NCBI GenBank assembly: GCA_964187785.1
Contig: OZ076409.1
Span: forward strand, 6,760,001-6,824,000
DNA: 64,000 nt
From: Amphiscolops sp. MND2022
Taxonomy: Eukaryota
Direction: 5' to 3'
The notes under the pieces are model-generated. The model was given only the letters and a program-made list of their open reading frames with translations. It made no database searches and was not told the origin of the DNA. Positions 14,793 to 32,879 of this stretch are shown here, in pieces; positions within the stretch are counted from its first letter, which is position 1; each line of letters begins with the position of its first letter. The position numbers and the translations under genes are program-made.

Positions 14793-15485
14793 CAACTTAT
14801 TGCTAATCTTTTAATCGAAAACAATTTGCGATCACTTTTTCTTTTGAGCAGTCGCAGCCTCGGAAGATATGCAGCTCTGATAAGTTTCGGTCAAAAATTT
14901 CTTCATACTTGTTAATGAGAGGCCTTAGCTCTTTTCGGTTTTCCCACCATCTGAATTTTTGAAATTTTGAAATGAAAAGTTTTTCAAACCAGCTGAATTG
15001 AAAGTGGAATTTTCTCCATAGCAGGAAGTTAACTTCTATTGGAACAGTTTTTCTTCACTTGAACAAAACATTTTTCAATCACTTAGGCTGTTATTATGCT
15101 CAAATTAACTGTTTTTTTTTGTGACTCAAAGACAGGAAGCTGTTGACTTCCTAATCAATAATGCGTGATTTCATAAGGAAAAATAGTGTGAACAAAGCTG
15201 TATAGGATCCTTAACTGGCATCTTGAGAATAATTTTAAAATTGAAGGTTTCTGGTTTGATTTTTAGTCTTTTTGTCCTAATATTTTCACTAATTTCCCAA
15301 AATTTTATGATGGGGGGGGTGTTGTGACAGAAATTCAAGAATGACGATTTTTCAATCAATCAATTAGAAAGACTACATTGATGGTTCTGTACACTTTCAG
15401 ATATTTGCATGTACTAACAGCTGAACGAACGATCTTCCATATTTGCTCTATAACTAACTCAAATCGACCAACTTTTATTCTTCCA

Positions 15486-15740
15486 ATGGGTCCTAAATGG
15501 GGTGGCGGAGACAAATGTGCGTCTTGTAGCAAGACTGTGTACGCCATGGAGAAAGTGGAGGCACTCAGTGGTATATACCATAAAAGTTGTCTGAAGTGTG
15601 CAACTTGCAGCAAAGTCATTCAACTGAGCACTTCTTCGGACCATGATGGTGTCTTGTATTGCAACCCCTGCCATCGCAAAAACTTCGGACCAAAGGGCAT
15701 CGGTTTTGGAGTGGGTGCAGGTACCTTGCACTCAACATGA
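15486..15740 (+). CDS. Single-LIM cysteine/glycine-rich protein, copy 2, 84 aa
   Basis: 77/84 aa identical to copy 1. True ATG is at 15486; the longer ORF-track start crosses a TTTCAG acceptor-like site at 15400. Confidence 0.93.
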   Translation: MGPKWGGGDKCASCSKTVYAMEKVEALSGIYHKSCLKCATCSKVIQLSTSSDHDGVLYCNPCHRKNFGPKGIGFGVGAGTLHST

Positions 15741-19665: not shown

Positions 19666-20272
19666 TACATGATAAATGAGATATAGATATCTTCACTATC
19701 CAAAGCAAATCCAGAATGCCAGAATGCTTTGTGCAGGATCAAGGAAGATGGTGAATGTGCTTTAGTTATTGTGCCTATGGGTCATTTCAATGGAAATATC
19801 AACTGGAGCACTGAGCTAATTCTCGACTGAAAAGGCCTTAAATTATTCATTCGAGAAATTGGAAATTTTGGAAAATTTTCCTCCCCTGCTGAAAAACTGG
19901 GAAAAAATGTAAAATTAGCATTAAAAATGTAGCTGGGGCTATAGGCATTTATGTGAATTCATCTGAATTGAGTAAAGTAAAAAGTTTTAGCAAAAGTAAT
20001 GTTGGTAAAATTCATTAGGTGAATTTGTAGGTTTTCCATGTCTGGGGGAGGGGAGCCGAATTTTTGGAATAAGACTGCTACCAAAAATACGATGGAACTA
20101 AAATTATCTAAAGAGTTTCACTTTGTGTCCACCGCGCAAATTTTTTCCACCGCATTTTTTCATTGAAACTTATTCGAATGAAACTAACTCACGCAGTTCT
20201 AGTGTAACTCCCCATCAAATTATGCCTCATTCAGATCAGAGATGAGAATTTATTGTAAACGCAATAATGCAA

Positions 20273-20747
20273 TTTTTAGTCGGCGCATTTTAGTAGAAAA
20301 TGTGCCCGACTCTTACAGTGGGTAGTTTTTTTAGTCGGCGCATTTTAGTAGAAATTGTGCCCGACTCTTACACTGGGTAGTTTTTTTTAGACACGAAAGG
20401 TCCACTTTTTTGTTCAGTTCATCTGTTCAACAACTTGGGGGAGGTTCAAAACACTCGAAATCTCAGAACCTTGTGCAAAACAAAAAAAAGAAACAAACGA
20501 ACGTCCTGGAAAACATAATAAGGGTCCAAAGTTAGACATTTCTATTTTTTTCGGCACTATGAGGCATTATTTTGAATTATTTTGTTACTGGAAAAATTTT
20601 TAATGTCTCCAAAGGGATCCCCTTTTCATACTTTGGAACAAACTGGAGTTTCTGAAAGCCTAAAAGGTCCACCTTTTTACAATTTTAAAAACTTCGCGCT
20701 TTTTGAGTCCCAGATATAGCGCCGACTTTGGCCGTTCCCGGCTTGTT
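20273..20747 (+). mobile_element. HINE-like family A copy (5' end locally duplicated)
   Basis: TTTTAGTCGGCGC...GCGCCGACTTTGGCCGTTCCCGGCTTGTT. Confidence 0.8.
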
Positions 20748-21111
20748 AGACATTTCTGAGGAATGTGCCAAGATGTTTCGTATTGCTAATAAATGTTCCT
20801 ATAGAAAAAATGTGCATTTCTGAGAAACGTTTAAAATTTTGAAATACAGAAAATCGCCGATTGCAAGCGCAGATATTGAGTGGGCGTTCTCGAGAATGTC
20901 AGCAATTTTGACGCCCCAAAGACAAAAACTTACGTTTAACTCGCTAAAGATGCATCTTATTATAAATTGGAACACCTATGAATTTGATGAAAATATTGAA
21001 TAAATTTTGTTTAAAACACTTTTTTCGCAATTTTTTCATTTTTTACGCATTTTTGGTCATTTTTGAGGTAGATTTATTGCGCAACTTTTCAATTATTTTC
21101 AGAGTTTTGCC

Positions 21112-21391
21112 ATGGAATCGATGATAAGTGATCCCCACATTGGCACAGTGGCCCCCATGCATTTTTCTTATTCCACCCTCAACTCCTCGCTAGAGGGCTG
21201 CGAAGTGTCATCGGGGGGTCACCCGCTCTCCGCGGTCGCCGAGGACTCGAACCAGAGTGTGACCTCTACAGATCAGTCTGTGTTGACCCCTGGCGAACTC
21301 ATCAGCAAGTTGGACATGGTCGTGAAAAAACTGCAGAAGAAAGATTACCGAAATCTGTTCATGTGGCCGTGGACCGAATCTTTTGCTCCAG
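21112..21391 (+). CDS. BRD7/9: BRD7/BRD9-like protein, coding exon 1
   Basis: ATG shortly after a TTTTCAG acceptor. LQKKDYRNLFMWPWTESFAPG resembles the start of the BRD7/9 bromodomain. Ends at GC donor CAG|GCAGGG, phase 1. Confidence 0.8.
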
Positions 21392-21420
21392 GCAGGGTTG
21401 CACAACATCAATCAACAGTT

Positions 21421-21610
21421 GTTATTTTCCGCCCCAATATAATGGGGCGGAAAATCATAATGTGTTTTTTACAAATTCTGCCAAATCTCCACCATGGCGC
21501 AGTTGGTAGTGCGTCTGCCTGGCAGACACGAGGTCCTGAGTTCGAACCCGTGCTGATGCGTTACATTTTTAGCGGAAAATATCCCGGTGCTTAGAGGGTG
21601 TCTTGTTTTA
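21421..21610 (+). mobile_element. HINE-like family B copy with tRNA-like internal segment
   Basis: 5' hairpin TTTTCCGCCCCA-ATATAA-TGGGGCGGAAAA, 3' subTIR GCGGAAAATA, ends GTCTTGTTT; relatives at ~30248-30480 and ~55745-56072. Confidence 0.65.
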
Positions 21611-21829
21611 AATAATATTGGATTCAATAGCTTGAAAGTTTTTAGGAGTCGGAGAAAATTTTCCAATACTTTATGAACTCGTACACCTTTTTTCTCCCGA
21701 TCTTTCAATTTTAAATTTCAATAAATTTCCAAATAAAGTTAGAGGAAACAAGCCGGGAACGACTCAAGTCGGCGCCCGCTCCTGATAGTTCTAACTAATT
21801 CGAAACATCAAAAACCCGGAATATTTCGT

Positions 21830-22490
21830 AACAAGCCGGGACCGGCCCAAGTCGGCGACATATCCAAGGCTCAAAAATAGCAAAAAGACTTCCAAGTGTC
21901 AAGTATTCTCTTTTACAGTACTCGAAAATCGAAAATTTTACGAGAAAAAATTTTCGAAAAAATTACATACTCAAAAAAATGGACCGAGTGGCGCACCGGG
22001 GCCCCTGGCGCGCTGAAAGGTGGACACTTCCGAAATTGTCGACATTTTGGCCGCAGTTGAGGGGGTTTTGTCGCAAAACATCAAAAAATTGAAACGGGGA
22101 AAATTTTTATTTTCGGAAAAAAATTTCACAGTGCCGAAAAAAACTGAAAGGGGGGACCCTTTGGGATTTTCCAACATCCATTCTGTCGCAAAACAGCAAA
22201 AAAATTGAAGGGGGAGGACCCTTTGAGGAAAAAAAATTTCCCGGAAAAAAAAGTCTCGCAGTGCCGAAAAAAATTGGAAGGGGGACCCTTTGGTCTCGCC
22301 GGGTATGGTATGTTACGCGGGAAAACAGGAAAAACCTTTTTGGTTCAGTTCGCTAGACCAAATAGTGCAATTTGGTGCAATGATATTTTGTAGAACTTTT
22401 GTAGAACTATTTTGGTCAGTTCGTGTGGATTCAAAAAAAGAAAAGCCACTATAATAGTCGCGTTTCACTTCATGAAGCGCCGACTAAAAA
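21830..22490 (-). mobile_element. HINE-like family A copy
   Basis: AACAAGCCGGGACCGGC...GCGCCGACTAAAA; an extra isolated 3' end lies at ~21748-21777. Confidence 0.8.
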
Positions 22491-23179
22491 AGACGTTTTT
22501 TTCTTCTGAAAAAGTCTATAGTGCCAAAAAACTTAAAAGGAGACCCTTCAAGTTCGCACAACCTTTTTTTTCAAGCCGAAAACGTTTTTTGAAAAGTGAA
22601 GGTGATTCCCTTTGACCAAATGATTTTTTTTCGAAACAAGTCGCACGAAGCGGAAAATTTTTTTCAACAGAAATTTTTTTAAAAATTGTGTGATTCAAAA
22701 ATCTTTCATTTTTTCGATAAGTCGCATAGTGCCGAAAAACTCTAAGGGTTGCAAAACGTTTCGTCTAAGGGTTGCAAAAAACTCTAAGGGTTGCAAAAAA
22801 AGGGAGGCTCCGGTTTAAAAATTTAGAAAAGTAGCAAGTACTGGTACCCTTTGCTCTTTCCTCTACTTTTGCGAACATAAAAAACTTGGATTAGTGCGGG
22901 ACTCGAACCCACGTCCTCCTGCTTTTCAGACTCCGTCACCAGGCCTGGAAATCCTCCTAATCTTTGGGTCAAAACGAGAAACCCTTCCATTTAAAATTGG
23001 TGAAATCCATTTAAAATTATAAAATTGGGTGCTTCGAGGTGACGAAGGAAATACTTGCCTCTGTAAAATTTGTGCTTTTTTTACTAAACTGGCTAACTTA
23101 TCTGCAAACTAATATCAGAAGACTTTTTCTCTTGGTGTAGCAAGAATCGTGAATTACATTGTTGAAGACGGAGTCACTA

Positions 23180-23936
23180 CAGTAGCGTTCTAAAATATCG
23201 CAACTCCAATGCTTAAAATTGCAAATTTCAAAACCAAATTTCTTGAAAACTGTCACAAATACGAAAAAGTGTCAGCTAGGAAAGTTTCTTAGAATATTAT
23301 CTAGTTTACAAAAATGTTTGTTTGAAATTTCTGCGACAAAAATTACAAAAGTTAGAAATTGGAAATTTTGACAAAATTTAATCAAATTTGTACTTTTTCT
23401 GGATTTTCACAAAGTTGAAAATATATTTTTGAAAAATTTTCAGTCCATCATTTGTCCCTAAATCTCCTGAGGATGTTGATATAATTTGATCGGAAACTTT
23501 TACGATTTCAAATAAAAATCATCAATTTTCTAAATACAATTCTTATAGCCTATCTTAATACATGTACTTCAGTGCTCATAGACACAAAATATAGTGTATT
23601 TTATCTGATTCGAAAAACAATTCTCGATCAAAACAATTCAGTAGGTTCGGGAGATTATAGGAAGTTTCCCAATGAAAAAAAATCCAAAAAAATTATTCTA
23701 AGTTCCTCAATTTTCGAAAAAGCTCAAATTTCAATTAAAATTTACCAAAATTTGCAATTTCTCACTTTTCTGGGAACGGTCGTAGAAATTTCAAACAAAC
23801 ATTTTTGTAAACTAGATAAAATTCTAAGAAACTTTCCTAGCTGACAAAACTTTGTATTCGTGACAGTTTATGAGATATTTGGTTTTGAATTTTGCCATTT
23901 TATGCTATGAGGTTGCGATATTTTAGAACGCTACTG
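23180..23936. mobile_element. Tc1/mariner-like MITE with long TIRs, TA TSD
   Basis: TA|CAGTAGCGTTCTAAAATATCGCAAC...GTTGCGATATTTTAGAACGCTACTG|TA; inverted arms ~200 bp. Confidence 0.85.
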
Positions 23937-24418
23937 TATGTAACATTAATGATTAGAGCAATGAATCTATTTGATACCGTTTTTAGTGAATCCGTTAAAT
24001 TTCCCATTGACTAAATTGTGAAAACGCAATAAAGTAATGCATTGAAATTTCCAATGCCTACATAACTTGTTAGTCTTCAACCTTCAAGTTTCGGTAATCG
24101 TCATCGTCTCCATGAATTTATAATGATTTATCTGACAAACTATTCCGAACCAATTTTTGTGAGCAAATAATAGGCTCACTATATGCTGTTAAATACTACT
24201 GCCGTGTTTGCTTTGCGTTCGATTGGTCGCGGTTTCTTAAAATGACTGCATAATCAAACATTGGGAGACAGTTTTATCCCAAAATCCATTGAATGAACCC
24301 AAAGTACTCGTTACATGATGAATTTCCTTTTGAACTACTTTTGATTAGTAATCACAGCAATCCATCAGCGTCTTCGTTGATTAAGTTTTGATCGTGAATT
24401 TTGTAACCCTGTCTTTAG

Positions 24419-24819
24419 GATTCAACCAAACGTACCCCCAGCAACAAACGCTCGCTCAAATCGGAAAGGACATATCAGAAGCGAAAATCCATTCAGTCCA
24501 ATCTTTCTATTCAATTTGTTTCGCCATCTTCGAAAACGTTGCCCAATTCGGCGGGGACCCCGAAACTTTTTTGTTCAAGTACGGCCGGAAGATGCAGTTT
24601 TTTCTGCAGAAAGAAGTGCTTAAAGTGTTTCCAACGTTCAGCGTGCCTGAAAACAGCGTCGCCGAGGCTTCTGGCTCCGAAATCCTGGCACGGAAAAGGT
24701 CATTTGTTGAGGCCGAGGCGGAATCTGCACAAGAACCAGATGGTAATGAAGCCAGCAACACTCTTCCGAAGCTGACTCAATTGGAAACGTTTGTGCTTGC
24801 GGCTTTGCCAAACCAGCCG
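24419..24819 (+). CDS. BRD7/9: BRD7/BRD9-like protein, exon 2 (remainder of bromodomain)
   Basis: Acceptor TCTTTAG|GA joins exon 1 in frame to give APG-FNQTYP; donor CCG|GTTAGA. Confidence 0.78.
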
Positions 24820-24929
24820 GTTAGATTTTCATTGAATACGGTCAACTCCGGTTAATTCGTATTCTGATAATTCAGATCTTCGTTTAATTCGTATGTATCT
24901 GGGATCTCCGTTTTGCGACGAAACAAGTA

Positions 24930-26142
24930 CAGTAGTGATATTATTAAAAGCAACAAAAGGCAAATCTCAAAATCAAATATCTCTAAAACAGCAGCGATTT
25001 TTGAAAAATGATAAGAGTGAAAGTTTCTTAGATTTTCATCTAGTTTACAAATATGTTTGTTTGAAAATTATGCGATGAAAATTGTAGAAGTTACGATAGG
25101 CCAATTTTAGCCAAAATTGAGGTTTTTCTCACTTTTGATATACTTTTTCTCAAAATTTTTGAAAAATTTTATGTTTAATTGGGGCCCCCCTGATTTAACT
25201 GAATCCCCTGATATGTTTTGATTGAGAAATCATTCTAAAATTGCAAAGAAAATACGCTGTAAAATTAAGCTTTTTCGAAAATACATGTATTAAGATACGA
25301 TTTTGAAATTTAGCCACTTAAAACAAGCTCGTACTAATACAATTTACAATATTTTCGAGAAAAAATTATATTGTCAGATTCGAAATGTTTGGGAGAATTT
25401 TTCTGTGAAAATTATTTTGAAATCAAAAAATTGTAAGTTGGTCAAAAATTCAAACAAGCCGGGAACGGCCCAAGTCGGCGCCATATCTAAGGCTCAAAAA
25501 TAGCAAAAGGACTTCAAAGTGTCAAGTATTCTCTTCTACAGTACCCGCGTGAGGAAAAATTTAAAAAAATCCGAATTTTTTTGAATTTTTTTTTCGAAAT
25601 TTTTTGGTCTCCGGTAAGTCGCATAGTGCCAAAAAATTGTAAAAGGGGCCCTTTGGGAGGTTTTGAACATCCATTCTTATGCAAAATAGAAAAAAAATGA
25701 AGGGTGGACCCTTTGGAGACATTAAAAAAATTTGCGAAAAAAGTCTCACAAAGCCGAAAAAAACCTGCACAAAAAAATTTGATCAAGGACGGGACTCGAA
25801 CCCACGTCCTTCTGCTTGGCAGACCTCAAAAAGCTTAATTAACCTCTATGCCAAGTGCCAGCAGTGATAGCTAGCGTTGCGGTTACTGTTAGTGCAGTTA
25901 CTGTAAGTCAGCTCAGCTATTTATAACTCTTTATAAAATCTGTCAGTTCGTTGGTCTTAAAAAAAAGTCACTACTATAGCCTGCGTTTTTCTTCGAAAAG
26001 CGCCGACTAAAAACTAAAAAATGATGTTTTGGAAATCGCTCTCGACCAATGAAATGAGCGCGTGAGACGTTATTTAGCCAATGAGATTTGTTTATTTGCT
26101 CTTTTTCCGCGTGCTTTGTTGCTTTTAATAATATCACTACTG
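24930..26142. mobile_element. Tc1/mariner-like MITE, TA TSD, interrupted by a HINE-like element
   Basis: TA|CAGTAGTGATATTATTAAAAGCAAC...GTTGCTTTTAATAATATCACTACTG|TA; uninterrupted partial paralog at ~59551-59794. Confidence 0.85.
25453..26013 (-). mobile_element. HINE-like family A copy nested in Tc1-like MITE
   Basis: Both termini present; paralogous empty site at ~59657-59670. Confidence 0.85.
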
Positions 26143-27138: not shown

Positions 27139-27291
27139 GCGCAAGAAGTGTCATCTTTGAGTGACTGTGTGGGCACGACCGAGTCTGGCGAGAAGATGCT
27201 CAAGATCCTGACTCCGTTCGACAACTCCAAAGTGGAGACCTCCAACTCCTACATCAACGTGCAGACCAAAGTAGAGAAATCGAAACTAAAG
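27139..27291 (+). CDS. BRD7/9: BRD7/BRD9-like protein, exon 3
   Basis: TTTCAG|GCG...AAG|GTCAGT, 51 codons, phase 0/0, GC-richer coding-like composition. Confidence 0.72.
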
Positions 27292-27641
27292 GTCAGTTGC
27301 AGCCAAAAGGAAGAGAAAAGCAAATGATAATAATAAAAAATTAATTTATCTAGCTTAAAAGCCAGAAAAGACCTACTGTAGGCTATCGCCCGTTTAGTGG
27401 AAGCCTTGAAGAGCCTGTCAATGTAATTTGGACAGCATGTTTGAAACTAAAGCATTTAGGAGGAAGAATTGTTTGAAGTATTTTCAAGAATCGATCAAAT
27501 TGAAGAAAAAAATTTCACGAAAAAAAAGAACCACAGAAAAGAATCGGTGCATCACCGTCTTGAAAATCGAGTTCTGGATTCGACATTACAACTGAGGATA
27601 TCTGTAGAAGCTACCTCTGTAAAAAAATATATAGTTTATGG

Positions 27642-28070
27642 CAGGGTTCGCATGTTTAATACATGCCGTGTTTTAAACGCGTTTTAAACATAGTTTTAAA
27701 CATGACAAAAACCTTCATTTTGTTCAATTGTTTTCATTTCAGTTGTAGATTTTTTAGTTCTAATAATCGCAATAATCTTGGGCAATTTGGCTGAAAACAT
27801 CAAGAAAATTGCCGATGCGCTTCTGGTTTTTATTCCAAGTTCGGGAGACTTGGAACGTATTTTCAGCACTCTAGGCTTCGTCCACGGCGAAACACGAAAT
27901 CGACCTCAGTTGAGAAAGCCACTGGCAACGAACTTGCTTTCTGTCTTCGCTCACTGCAGTAAACTCAGTTCTTAGGTCGTTTAGTGTTAGAAGTATTTGA
28001 AATAGATCTAAAGTTTCGAACATGTTTTAAGCAAAATTTTTTAAATGTTTTAATTTTTTTCCGAACCCTG
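27642..28070 (+). mobile_element. Non-autonomous hAT deletion derivative retaining a transposase C-terminal dimerization fragment
   Basis: TIR CAGGGTTCG/CGAACCCTG; perfect 8-bp TSD GTTTATGG. ORF 27778-27975 IPSSGDLERIFSTLGFVHGETRNR matches the hAT PxSSxxxERxFS..RNRL motif. Confidence 0.9.
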
Positions 28071-28399
28071 GTTTATGGATGAAAGAAAAGAGCCAAAAAA
28101 TCTAGCTTGCTGTCCTTTTATTGGATCACTTAAGAAGTGTTGCAAAAAGACTCGAAAATGCGCTTTGATTTCATTCGAGCTGCACAACGGACTTCGAACT
28201 GTTACTTCCGACTGTGCCTGAGAAACAATTTCAAACGTTTGTCCACAAGCGATTGATGACTGAGATCATTGATTTCTCGAAGTTTTAAGAAATTTGACTG
28301 AAACTTGAAAGTAAACATACCTTGATGAACTCTTGAGATTCTGTTCAGTTGAAGAAATTTTTTAATCTAGGGAAATTACCACCATTTGAGTCGTGTGAA

Positions 28400-29435
28400 A
28401 AATTCATTTTATCAGGAGGCTCCAGATAGAGCTGTACAGGCAATGCTGCCCTTAGCCCGCCACATTCAGGTCACGAATAAGTGCTCTCCATTGGCTTCTG
28501 TTCTGGGCTGTTTCTTTACACAGATCAAACCACTGTGCCTCCCACTTCTTCAGCGTCATCTTTGGAGATTTTACAACTGTCTTCAGCTCTTCACGGACAA
28601 TTTTTCGCCAGGATTTGCGTACGCCGCCGGGGGGTCTTCTCCAGTTTTCACCTTTTTCAAACTCAACTACTGCATTAGGAATTTCCGAGGACTTCATACG
28701 GAATACATGTCCTAGCCATTTCAAGCGTCTCTTTTGTATCATAGGGGCAAGAGGGTCACATTTTGCAGTAGGAGTGATCAATGATTAGGGCAGGTCATGT
28801 CCCTTATGGAGTATACGTCGCAGACAGCGGTTTTCGAAGGACTGTGAGCTGCTTAGGTCGGATTCCTTAACTGGCCAGCTCTCGCATCCGTACAGAAGAA
28901 CACTTCTCACGCACGCGTTGTAGATTTTCACTTTTACTGGCTGTGGGATACTCCTCTGGTTCCAAACTCTTTTCAAATTGTTAAAACTACCTGCAGCATT
29001 CCCTATCCTGGCCTTGATATCTGATGTTACATTTCCATCAAGTTGGATCTTGCTTCCAAGATAGGTGAAGTCCTCGACTCGCTCTAGTTCTTCACCATAG
29101 ACGTGGAACTTCTGGTTGATGTCGTGGGTGCAGAATTTGGTCTTGCCGACATTTAAATGGAGGCCTACTAAAGCAGCGTAGCTGGTTACTTGATCGAGTA
29201 GCCTTCGGGCATCTGTGCCGTTGTCGTCAAGCAAACAGATGTCGTCGGCGAAGTCAAGGTCAGCAATTGTCATGTCATCTAACGCGACGCCTACATTTTC
29301 GTTTTCGAGAGCTTGTTCCATGATCCAATCGATTACGATGTTAAACAGAAAGGGGGATAGAATGGAGCCTTGTCACACTCCACTGAGAATGCTGAATTGG
29401 CGTGACATGGTGTTATGTACTCGGATTTGGCTGTA
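28400..29435 (-). mobile_element. 5'-truncated RTE-like non-LTR retrotransposon (RT pseudogene fragment), antisense in BRD7/9 intron 3
   Basis: Motifs GV*QGSILSP, LDFADDICLL, FTYLGS, LLYGCESW, RRLKWLGHVFRM; stops/frameshifts present. Confidence 0.9.
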
Positions 29436-30098
29436 GGCTCGTATCATCAAAACTCAATGTAGTTTATGTGTCAGTTGTATATGAAGCCATGATATCCAAA
29501 AAGCCACAGATCTATGCATCTGACTTTTTCTGCATTTCTGCAAGCCTAATTTTTATCGATTTCTCATATTCACAGTTTAACGAAATACCGAATGAAATAT
29601 TATCGACACTTTTTCCTTTTCCCCCACACTTTACTAGATTGTTTTAGCAGTTAATTTCTCTCAATTGAGTTTCCAATGAAACATTTCACGTAATTTCAAA
29701 AAGTTAATCTTTTTTAAATATTGAAAAGTCTTTTTAAATAATTGTTCAGCTCACTTCCGTTTGTATTCTGATTCGCAAAAATGAATTTCGCCGCAAAATT
29801 GTATGTTAGCGTGAATGAAAAAAATGAATCTGTGAAATTTTTTCATGATCGTTATCGTTTATTTGAAACTCGAAATTGTTTTCATTGTAATACTGAATTG
29901 ACTATTTACCTTGTATAAGATATAATCTTTCATGTTGAATTGTTTTCTTTGAAAGTGGAGGTGGGGGTTGAGTTAAAAGAACCACATTATCAACCTTGTT
30001 CGTTCGTTCGTTCCAAACTAGCGTATTCTGGTTTATTTTCAGGGTTTTTTAGGATATTTCATCTATCCTATCTATCAAAACCAAGGTTTCTGTTTTAG

Positions 30099-30206
30099 GT
30101 GAAGCCCTACAAATACTTCAACTTCGGCCCATTCTCATCTCACGCGCCCACCTATGACTCATCACTAAGTTACTTCACAAAGGACGAGTCGGACCTGTTA
30201 TATCAG
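30099..30206 (+). CDS. BRD7/9: BRD7/BRD9-like protein, exon 4 (DUF3512 region)
   Basis: VKPYKYFNFGPFSSHAPTYDSSLSYFTKDESDLLYQ matches the BRD7/9 YLNYGPxSSxAPxYDS motif; GC donor CAG|GCAAGT. Confidence 0.88.
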
Positions 30207-30929
30207 GCAAGTTGACCCCAAATTTACCTCATTTTTATTACCTTTTTTATTTTCGCCCCCACAATTTATTTGTGTAGAAGGAGGAAAATCACCATCTGTG
30301 TAGCGTTTTTTTCCAAATTCTACCAAAAATCCACTAATGATATAATCCATTCAATTTAGTCACGTTAGCCCAGTTGGTAGGGCGTCTGCCTGATAGTCAG
30401 TACGTCGTGGGTTCGAACCCGGGTGGGAGCATGGAACCGTGTACTTGAAGTTTTGTTACGCATCAAAGCGGATGTTTTTTAGTACTTTTTCGTCAACTTT
30501 TCGGTAATCCGGTGGAAGCAATCATAGAACTTCTACGAAATGCCGCAGATCTGAAGTAGACCAAAAATGATTCGGAGAGTCTTTCCTCCTTTTACTTTTT
30601 TTGCATAATCTGATTACAAAGCTATATGACTTTATCCGCACTGTGCGATTTTTGTTTCCAAAAATTCGAATTTACTATTCATCATACCGTATTTGATCGA
30701 AAAACGCCCGGCCTCGAATGTAAATAGTTTAGGTTGAACTTTGCACATTTCTTACTGAATCATTTTTGAACCAGAAATTTTGAAGCACCTCAAGAAGTTG
30801 AAGCTACCTCATGATATTTGAAATACAAACCGGTGTAGCTTTGTGCAAGTTTAAATTTGAACTATAGAAGTCAGAAAAATTACAAGCTTTTTCAGAAGTT
30901 TGCAGTTTAGGCGATTGAAAAAGTCACGA

Positions 30930-31413
30930 TTTTTAGTCGGCGCTTTGCTTAAGAAAAGAGTCGACTATAGTCATGGCGTTTCGCCAGTTTTTTTTTCGAT
31001 ACACCTGAAGTGACCAAAATAGTTCTAACAAAAGTTCTTTAAAATTATTAGTTGTACCTGTTGGCCCAGGGAACTGAACTAAAAAGGTTTTTCCTTTTTT
31101 CCGCGTAGCATACAATTCCGGGCGAGGCTAGAGGGTCCCCTTTTCAGTATTTTTCGGGGCATTGTGGGACTAGTTTTTTTCGAAAAAAGTTTCTCCAAAG
31201 GGTCCCCTTAATTTTTTTGAAGTTTTGCGACAGAATGGATGTTGAAATATTCCAATGTGTCCCCCCTTCGTTTTCTTCGGCACTGAGAGATTTTTTCAAA
31301 AAAATATTTCCATCAAAGGGTCCCCAATTCACCAATACTTTGACACTTTGAAGTCCTTTTGCTATTTTTGGGCCTCAGATATGGCGCCGACTTGGGCCGG
31401 TTCCGGCTTGTTT
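30930..31413 (+). mobile_element. HINE-like family A copy
   Basis: TTTTAGTCGGCGC...GGCGCCGACTTGGGCCGGTTCCGGCTTGTT. Confidence 0.8.
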
Positions 31414-31551
31414 GATATAAATTCCACTACACTTCTTGAGAAGGCGTCACTTTTCGCTGATTAAAGTCTCTTAATGCCAGATCGGAAAAGCCTCGTTTAC
31501 AAAAACTATAGTCCTCTTTTGTGAAGTGAAATCATCTCGTTTTAATTTCAG

Positions 31552-31981
31552 GAGTACTTTGGAAAACCCCAAAAACAGTTTGCCAGAGAAATGCTTCATT
31601 TCGCTGAGAAACATGAGTTCATGACGACCTACTTTGCCAGAGATTACTACGACAGTGTTATGAATAACCCTAACATTCCTGATGACATTGAGATACCCTC
31701 CAATTTAGCAGAATCCAATCATGACCCCCCTAGTGACGACGAACTACGCAAACTCAAAGAGCTGTCCAAACTGGGAATCGATGTATCTTTCTTGGACCCG
31801 AAACCTTCTGTTAAAGTGCCAACAGAAAAGGAACTGAAATCGCTCACTCCTAATGAACTGTTGGAAAGGATGATCAAGCTGCAAAACCACAGAATGAGCA
31901 AGTCGCAAGTCAACTCTAAATTGTTTCCTCAAGAGGAGAAAATGTCCGCCATTCTCATGACCAAACTGGCCCATGCCCTAG
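31552..31981 (+). CDS. BRD7/9: BRD7/BRD9-like protein, exon 5
   Basis: TTTCAG|GAG in frame with ORF 31591-31998. LKELSKLGIDVSFL and LLERMIKLQNHRMS resemble BRD7/9 C-terminal motifs. Donor CTAG|GTCAGG, or else reads to TGA at 31998. Confidence 0.82.
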
Positions 31982-32003
31982 GTCAGGGTCACAGCTGATC
32001 TGT

Positions 32004-32296
32004 TTTTAGGAGTCGGAAAAAATTTGCTATTTATGCAGCATATCTTTTCTCTCCCGATTTTTCAATGAACAAAAAAAGTTTCAAATGTCCATACAATTTT
32101 TATAAAATTTAGCACAGTCCTTGTACACCCAAACGGGCTCCTGTGCGTGCACAATGACATCAAAATCGTATGACTGGAATGTGAGAAATGTAGCCAAATT
32201 TGTCCAAAAATGGCCAAATTACAGTAAAGTACGCAATTTGTTCTTCAATATTTTAATCCGTTTCCGACTCCTTTGCCGCTCATGCGGCTTTGCTTA
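32004..32296 (+). mobile_element. HINE-like family C copy
   Basis: TTTTTAGGAGTCGGAAA...TTTCCGACTCC followed by hairpin GCCGC-TCAT-GCGGC. Confidence 0.7.
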
Positions 32297-32879
32297 TCAC
32301 TTTTTGTGTTATCTAGTGGCTTTTAGTTCTAATGTTTCGTCATTTGCTTTATTTTGTTCCTCTTTCTCATAGACAATTTATATCATAGCTGTTAATTAGT
32401 AGATAAATTTTTTCTGTCAATGTTTTGAAATCTACAAACTTCGTGCTTTTGTTCAAAAAACTTCAAGTGAAACGCGGAACCATGAATCGATTTGAAAAAA
32501 AAAATGAAGTGAACGTTTCATTGTTTTTAATCGTAATTCCAGTCCAACCTGTATTTTGACGTTAGAGTAAAATAGTCTTCGGCATCAAAACGCTGAAAAT
32601 TTCTGTTTTCTGGAATAACAATATTTTAAAGTGTTTTTTTTCTCACTTTCAACCAACGCTTTCCTGAAAAAGTCAAAATGTCTTTAGTTGAAATCTCCGA
32701 CGGCAAATTCTGAATTAAGGTATCGTGATTAGCTAAGTTCACATACCAATAGTGCCTTAAATACAGGAGCGGAGCGACGTACAACTACTGGTCCAGCGGC
32801 TGGTTTTGACGAAGCGCCCGGAAGGAGGAATGTCAGGTCTTATAACCATTTTTTTGACTTTTTCCTTTTTAATATTTCT

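Follow-up and report, generated by a model that had tools for sequence, protein, structure and literature searches.

How does a coding exon that runs without interruption in related species come to be divided by an intron of 3 kb beginning with GC? The question is raised by a bromodomain gene of the acoel Amphiscolops sp. MND2022, which lies within a stretch of 64,000 nucleotides (nt) of contig OZ076409.1 (assembly GCA_964187785.1); this whole stretch is called the window, and positions refer to it unless another source is named. An earlier reading of its letters (below, the sequence-only reading) had explained the intron by the insertion of a hAT-like element, and that interpretation is largely supported by the analysis reported here: on balance it is likely that the segment is at once lineage-specific, transposon-derived, hAT-like and spliced out at GC and AG borders.

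The interrupted exon and its gene

The part of the gene in question is composed as follows (here and below, a slash within a sequence marks a boundary).

21112..21391, + strand: coding exon 1a, from the ATG to ...TGG ACC GAA TCT TTT GCT CCA G; 280 nt, ending in phase 1 (translation; tblastn with P0025, P0026 and P0030)
21392..24418, + strand: lineage-specific GC-AG intron of 3027 nt, phase 1, placed by frame and homology and absent in three relatives
24419..24819, + strand: coding exon 1b, GA TTC AAC ... CCG, with most of the bromodomain (tblastn, open reading frame (ORF) P0003, Pfam)

As read from the sequence, GC (21392) and AG (24418) are the sole GY-AG pair near the boundaries that keeps the frame and yields ...FAPG/FN..., while the GT at 21397-21398, if taken as an alternative donor, would lengthen the exon by 5 nt and so shift the frame. 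The two exon parts (280 and 401 nt) make up 227 codons only with the junction 21391/24419, and the predicted spliced junction is GCTCCAG/GATTCAAC, that is, ...TTTGCTCCAG joined to GATTCAACC. The claim of the sequence-only reading that a GC donor is required at 21392, the GT being out of frame, therefore holds; its span of 21385..24419 stands as far as the sequence facts are concerned and is corrected at its end, as the last intron base is 24418 and the exon resumes at 24419.

The state of this site in the relatives was judged from genomic ORFs, the proteins labelled 'ENA' in the collection being plain ORF calls on genomic contigs. Among these calls, P0006 (160 amino acids, aa) corresponds to exon 1a of the window with read-through into the intron, to ...YPGA, and P0003 (153 aa) is the ORF of exon 1b with GTG read as M. 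In all three relatives available the ORFs run uninterrupted through ...WPWT(E/D)xFAPGF(N/K)...:

Closest relative: ORFs P0002 and P0025, on contigs of 120 and 109 kb, uninterrupted across FAPGF
Symsagittifera roscoffensis: ORFs P0004 and P0027, on contigs of 358 and 567 kb, uninterrupted across FAPGF
Convolutriloba macropyga: ORFs P0005 and P0031, on contigs of 52 and 192 kb, uninterrupted across FAPGF

P0004 falls into the 90% cluster of XP_063726398.1, and P0005 and P0031 into that of XP_075243597.1. The ORFs of the relatives diverge from the annotated spliced NCBI proteins only ~130-150 residues further on, at the next intron (GKDDNE/VNIYH versus GKDDNE/ELRTV; QEKIE/ASCRAY versus QEKIE/KPRPV), and in S. 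roscoffensis a separate ORF, P0028, opens with the last exon (..EYFGKPQ). Thus, the intron at 21392-24418 is the only one missing from the relatives, which have kept the rest, and it represents a lineage-specific gain.

The reverse polarity, that is, an ancestral intron precisely lost in all three relatives, with its terminal repeats (described below) arising by chance, has in its favour that the relatives are known here from ORFs and not from DNA, and that some lineages often lose introns precisely. It would demand two or three independent exact losses, compared with which a single gain in the lineage of the window is, on the sequences at hand, much more parsimonious, and it would leave to accident the presence of transposon termini exactly at the intron ends; wholesale loss via a retrocopy is excluded, since the relatives keep the neighbouring introns. 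We regard such losses as highly improbable, and the segment as almost certainly a lineage-specific insertion. An ancestral position in BRD7/9 orthologues, which the sequence-only reading had named as the finding that would speak against it, is not what the relatives display: the position is not ancestral, the ORF being uninterrupted in three of them.

A paralogue from the same genome was considered as a further comparison and rejected. A search of the genome with P0002 found this locus plus weak hits only, the best of which (C7:57065053, E = 0.0155) lies in an open frame of 1775 aa and shows no break at the junction region; it belongs to a different bromodomain gene and is uninformative.

The rest of the gene consists of the following parts.

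27139..27291, + strand: coding exon 3 of five (tblastn), with splice contexts TTTCAG/GCG and AAG/GTCAGT
30099..30206, + strand: coding exon (tblastn, 69-72% identity), directly followed by a second GC donor, CAG/GCAAGT
30207..31551, + strand: another GC-AG intron of this gene; S. roscoffensis has an intron at the same position
31552..31998, + strand: last coding exon, conserved C-terminal region (tblastn, 62% identity to P0026 over 149 aa; ORF listing)

According to tblastn with the proteins of the relatives, the five exons join in frame into a coding sequence of 462 codons. Judging by sequence similarity, this is a BRD7/9-like bromodomain gene: the cluster mates are named by NCBI 'bromodomain-containing protein 9-like [Symsagittifera roscoffensis]' and '7-like [Convolutriloba macropyga]', and the Pfam family Bromodomain (PF00439) is matched by P0002 of the closest relative with 22.2 bits (cut-off 21.7) at residues 51-128, across the junction. 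Exon 1b of the window, taken alone, has a Bromodomain match below the cut-off (E = 0.085). The ORF of the last exon (31546-31998) matched zero Pfam families at E up to 1, including the one that we take to be the C-terminal domain of BRD7/9 proteins (DUF3512, PF12024).

As to the fate of the inserted segment, the gene might have been disrupted instead of having acquired a working intron, with the transcript broken or starting downstream and exon 1a left as a decaying remnant. Such a state would agree with the weak donor CAG/GCAGGG, with an intron made of 3 kb of repeats, and with splicing being deduced from frame and conservation. It agrees poorly with the coding sequence itself: exon 1a is still open, and the identity of its conserved part to the closest relative (~90%, read from the alignment) is like that of the bromodomain part of exon 1b (~86%); all five exons are in frame, and the later ones (30099-30206 and 31552-31998) are still 62-72% identical to those of a distant relative, S. 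roscoffensis. Besides, the insertion is old enough to have acquired nested repeats, and two database contigs carry the read-through ORF of exon 1a, with the nested repeats in it, in identical form. As the gene is apparently constrained along its whole length, the 3-kb segment must be removed in frame, and disruption of the gene appears unlikely to us.

The use of a GC donor is not confined to the new intron. The donor at 30207 reads TAT CAG/GCAAGT, and the closest GT would add 5 nt; the position of this intron is shared with S. roscoffensis, in which the ORF P0028 starts with ..EYFGKPQ and the annotated P0026 reads LLYE/EYFGKPQ. A GC donor of this kind at a conserved intron position makes it probable that splicing at GC donors takes place in this species. 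Such donors are needed by two of the four introns of the gene, which hints that they are perhaps unusually common here.

Termini of the intron and a resident transposon family

The features found at the two ends of the intron are a pair of terminal inverted repeats (TIRs) and, outside them, two putative copies of a target-site duplication (TSD). The family with which the TIRs are compared consists of miniature inverted-repeat transposable elements (MITEs) and is described below.

21385..21392, + strand: left putative copy of an 8-bp TSD, GCTCCAGG; its last G is intron base +1
21393..21405, + strand: left TIR, CAGGGTTGCACAA; its first C is intron base +2 and gives the C of the GC donor; 12 of 13 positions agree with the MITE terminus CAGGGTTGCAAAA
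24399..24411, + strand: right TIR, TTTTGTAACCCTG; its reverse complement agrees with the same terminus at 12 of 13 positions and with the left end of the family at 18 of 21 over CAGGGTTGCAAAAAACACGAT
24412..24419, + strand: right putative TSD copy, TCTTTAGG; the pyrimidine tract, the acceptor AG (24417-24418) and the first base of exon 1b all come from this copy

The intron thus starts with G+CAGGGTTGCACAA and ends with TTTTGTAACCCTG+TCTTTAG, the arms being located 1 nt and 7 nt from the respective intron ends. They are complementary at 11 of 13 positions, and in RNA one of the two mismatches would be a G-U wobble. The flanks GCTCCAGG and TCTTTAGG are identical at five of eight positions, with T in the intronic copy at all three mismatches. 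Both the 11/13 repeat pair and the placement of the three T residues had been described in the sequence-only reading and are confirmed.

How often such ends arise by chance was estimated from intervals drawn from the window, counting those that carry an inverted 13-mer pair with at least 11 matches not more than 10 nt from both interval ends. There were 64 hits among 20000 random intervals and 50 among 20000 GY..AG intervals (~0.3% per intron), a rate that makes the pair suggestive, not decisive.

More can be said from the comparison with other elements of the genome. A 399-bp element at another locus (L066) runs from CAGGGTTGCAAAAAT, with the terminus CAGGGTTGCAAAA, to CGCAACCCTG. With it as the query, 55 candidates were obtained from the genome, of which 40 were scored, with 45 matches at 68-86% identity, at least nine of them starting no more than 3 nt from the first C of CAGGG; the two matches at 99-100% are the query locus itself and a tandem copy. 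Eight more copies were fetched, six of them with both ends, which makes seven full copies with that of L066. Their 8-nt flanks match each other at 8/8, 7/8, 7/8, 7/8, 6/8, 4/8 and 4/8 positions, that is, at six or more in five of the seven copies. An old family of MITEs with 8-bp TSDs is therefore resident in this genome, and the search for a family with CAGGGTT(G/A)CA ends that the sequence-only reading had proposed has led to it. Some of its ends share with the right arm more than the motif by which they were retrieved: positions 14-21 of this arm, which were not used for retrieval, agree at five or more of eight positions in 6 of 14 family ends and in 1 of 29 motif hits outside the family. 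The motif hits are mostly unrelated to one another, and some of them are true element ends.

The 399-bp element of L066/L067 (G000:C2:20022763-20026785) lies within a tandemly duplicated unit of ~1010 bp, whose two copies are 99-100% identical and 1010 nt apart.

As for the class of the element, an 8-bp TSD is of the length typical of hAT elements, and the termini of Ac-like hAT elements begin with CAGGG. Based on the TSD length and the CAGGG terminus of the related family, the insert in the intron is probably hAT-like.

Interior of the intron and the case for a transposon origin

Between the TIRs the intron is a mosaic of nested repeats and of sequence found once in the genome.

21415..23088, no strand assigned: block of nested interspersed repeats (own-genome searches, local BLAST)
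23089..23177, no strand assigned: short core stretch without a genome match; the repeat matches covered query positions 1-164 only, to 23088
23178..23938, no strand assigned: nested foldback element whose arms, of 160 nt, are 88% complementary and whose ends are TA/CAGTAGCG...CGCTACTG/TA (repeat-pair search)
23939..24398, no strand assigned: essentially single-copy 3' part, taken as the original element body (own-genome searches)

The first block includes heads of a tRNA-like short interspersed element (SINE) on the + strand at ~21490-21560 and on the - strand at ~22880-23088. This SINE is very abundant (3436 candidates in the own-genome search, with copies 92-96% identical). ARAGORN found zero tRNA genes at 20000-26000, and the Rfam scan gave only a sub-threshold match of the tmRNA model to the SINE head (17.7 versus 47 bits). 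The foldback element is presumably Tc1/mariner-like. The intron has therefore grown to 3 kb by nested elements (21415-23088 and 23178-23938), as the sequence-only reading had supposed. What remains outside them is ~580 nt (21393-21414, 23089-23177 and 23939-24411) and is essentially single-copy: the query 24150-24480 matched only itself, and the query 23930-24160 matched itself and, weakly, one further stretch of 66 nt. Given this remainder, the original insert was probably a non-autonomous element of ~0.6 kb, and it probably shares only its termini with the MITE family.

The nested block has one more property. Three tandem copies of AAGGGTTGCAAAA, each one mismatch away from the MITE terminus, are located at 22744-22798, and all five matches to this terminus with at most one mismatch in the window fall within this intron. 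The internal copies were considered as further MITE ends; this found no support, the adjoining unit GTCGCATAGTGCCGAAAAACTCTAAGGG being part of a common interspersed repeat, and their likeness to the MITE terminus may be accidental.

A number of observations weigh against the origin of the intron from such a transposon, and they concern the interior, the flanks, the termini and the donor. The interior is unlike the interiors of the MITEs and belongs to no repeat family, its 3' 480 nt being essentially single-copy; since it matches no family, membership is judged from the 13-21 terminal nt of each arm. The similarity of the left and right arms past 13 nt is not significant (457/5000 in the null sample), with only 9 nt of the left arm left before the nested repeat begins. 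The MITE family was retrieved with the motif of the intron itself, so that the match is not fully independent, and no transposase is tied to these termini, the hAT label resting on the related family. As to the flanks, their 5/8 match is by itself not significant: the three residues AGG that account for part of it are needed by the splice consensus or the coding sequence, and only two of the five free positions agree. In addition, GCTCCAGG has no T at position 2, a residue present in all eight clearly read flanks of another hAT-like family of this genome and in four of the five well-matched duplications of the MITE family. The genome as a whole is not enriched in the motif: the exact 13-mer has 13 hits in 1.07 Gb, where base composition predicts ~17 and the reversed control has 3, and the degenerate 13-mer CAGGGTTRCAMAA has 158 hits versus 126 for its control. 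Finally, the donor CAG/GCAGGG differs from the usual GC-donor consensus GCAAGT at +4 and +6, agreeing with it at -3 to +1, +3 and +5; splicing at the GC and AG borders, deduced from frame and conservation, is nevertheless quite likely.

Several of these points, namely the essentially single-copy interior, the 5/8 flanks and the lack of genome-wide enrichment, together with the occurrence of such an inverted pair in ~0.3% of random intervals, would suit a new intron that arose with no transposon involved, from DNA captured in the repair of a double-strand break or by some other insertion that left a repeat of AGG, so that the TIRs and the likeness to MITEs would be coincidental. This explanation does not account for the fact that both arms stand at the spacing expected for TIRs with an 8-bp duplication, nor for their agreement (12/13 each, 18/21 for the right arm) with a terminus that demonstrably bounds elements with 8-bp duplications in this genome; taken jointly, these coincidences are far less probable than the inverted pair by itself. 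We therefore find capture without a transposon quite unlikely, and consider the segment very likely to be transposon-derived.

Proposed course of events, known systems and neighbouring features

If a transposon origin is accepted, the derivation of donor and acceptor follows from the sequence, and the history of the intron was probably as follows. Once the species had separated from its closest sequenced relative, a DNA transposon of the non-autonomous kind, ~0.6 kb long and with the termini CAGGGTTGCA... also found in the resident MITE family with 8-bp duplications, would have entered the first coding exon. Its target would have been GCTCCAGG, within the codons for Ala-Pro-Gly, giving the arrangement GCTCCAGG-(CAGGG...CCCTG)-GCTCCAGG-ATTC. 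The duplicated target holds CAG/G, so that the left copy would serve as the exon-side context of the donor and the right copy as the acceptor CAG/G: the donor GC would be composed of the last G of the left TSD copy and the first C of the TIR, and the acceptor AG would be provided by the right copy. Splicing after the first and the second CAG would then remove the element together with one copy of the TSD and restore ...FAPG/FN... with no insertion or deletion. A transposon that begins with C offers a mechanistic reason for the GC donor.

Two later processes should be added to this scheme. The nesting of SINE-like repeats and of the foldback element has enlarged the intron to its 3027 nt, and the intronic copy of the TSD would have turned into TCTTT, that is, into pyrimidines only. 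In this copy three of five unconstrained positions are changed, all of them to T, against two of 26 positions changed in the TIRs relative to the family terminus (Fisher p = 0.02). The changes to T fit selection for a pyrimidine tract, without proving it.

The arms could also pair in the pre-mRNA and maybe hold the splice sites together. An RNA duplex of the intron ends is predicted at -17.9 kcal/mol, and ends of equal stability were found in 12 of 3000 null intervals; that such pairing would aid splicing is speculation, modelled on the introns derived from MITEs in the review PMC11282704.

The mechanism is of a known kind, namely that of transposon-derived introns. Introner families, according to a large survey (PMC9860276), have terminal repeats and TSDs; some bring one of their splice sites with them and co-opt only the second, and in others, as in Florenciella, both are co-opted. 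The same survey reports Introners from only two animal groups. Among the introner-derived introns of some dinoflagellates GC-AG borders are prevalent, according to the review PMC11282704. The present intron resembles Introners as there described (those of Micromonas, Aureococcus, dinoflagellates and others) in that a non-autonomous transposon with TIRs and a TSD would have entered an exon and be removed as an intron, with splice sites co-opted from the TSD or insertion site. Unlike them, it is known from a single locus, its interior is essentially single-copy and its host is a bilaterian (an acoel); it also differs in the 8-bp TSD of hAT type and in a donor that would be split into G from the TSD and C from the TIR. 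A single locus with an essentially single-copy interior does not make a member of an 'Introner family'.

Another animal with comparable introns is the tunicate Fritillaria borealis, whose species-specific MITE-derived introns are mostly AG-AC or AG-AT and depend on an altered spliceosome (Henriet et al., 2019, as cited in PMC11282704). The likeness includes the animal host, the derivation from MITEs, non-GT donors and, following the same review, the possibility that pairing of the TIRs brings the ends together. In contrast to the tunicate introns, the borders here are GC-AG, an ordinary minor variant of U2-type introns. The MITEs of the hAT superfamily are matched by the related family in their 8-bp TSDs and CAGGG termini; they are not matched in that no hAT transposase is tied to the termini here and the local TSD, with its 5/8 identity, has no T at position 2. 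As for other acoels, the report on the genome of Praesagittifera naikaiensis states that no introns made only of transposable elements were found (PMC6451197), and our literature search returned no report of a transposon-derived intron in an acoel.

Clear and datable births of introns are rare in animals, and the locus described shows the whole path together: a continuous exon in the relatives, transposon termini at the ends, assembled splice sites and nested growth. If RNA confirms the junction, the locus could serve to test whether pairing of TIRs and tolerance of GC donors help new introns to survive. A broader proposal would be that introner-like gain is ongoing or recent in this acoel lineage, so that hAT-type MITEs with CAGGGTTGCA termini, on entering ...CAGG targets, become GC-AG introns at once, aided by TIR pairing and a GC-tolerant spliceosome. 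We consider this rather doubtful; if true, it would provide a bilaterian animal as a tractable model for transposon-driven intron birth.

A second element of hAT-like appearance is located immediately upstream of the gene.

20237..21099, + strand: 3'-truncated hAT-like element of a different family, with the left end CAGAGATGAGAATTTATTG; it ends 13 nt before the ATG

About 24 nt are missing at its right end, and it stops just before TTTTCAG. In nine other copies of its family the right end reads ...AATAAATTCTCATCCCTG, the termini of the family being CAGGGATGAGAAT. A weak remnant of the hAT dimerisation domain (Dimer_Tnp_hAT) at 20824-21000 (E = 0.015, below the cut-off) is the sole hAT-like coding remnant seen. 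This element was considered as the source of the left TIR of the intron and rejected, as the end of its family (...TCATCCCTG) differs and its orientation is wrong.

Further downstream, the intron 27292-30098 of the same gene contains a reverse-transcriptase fragment on the - strand at 28785-29372 (RVT_1, E = 3e-11; DUF6451, E = 4e-8). Outside the gene, the ORF 15345-15737 encodes a LIM domain (E = 1e-10) and the ORF 32106-32369 has a weak match to a PHD finger (E = 0.005); both ORFs are probably exons of the flanking genes.

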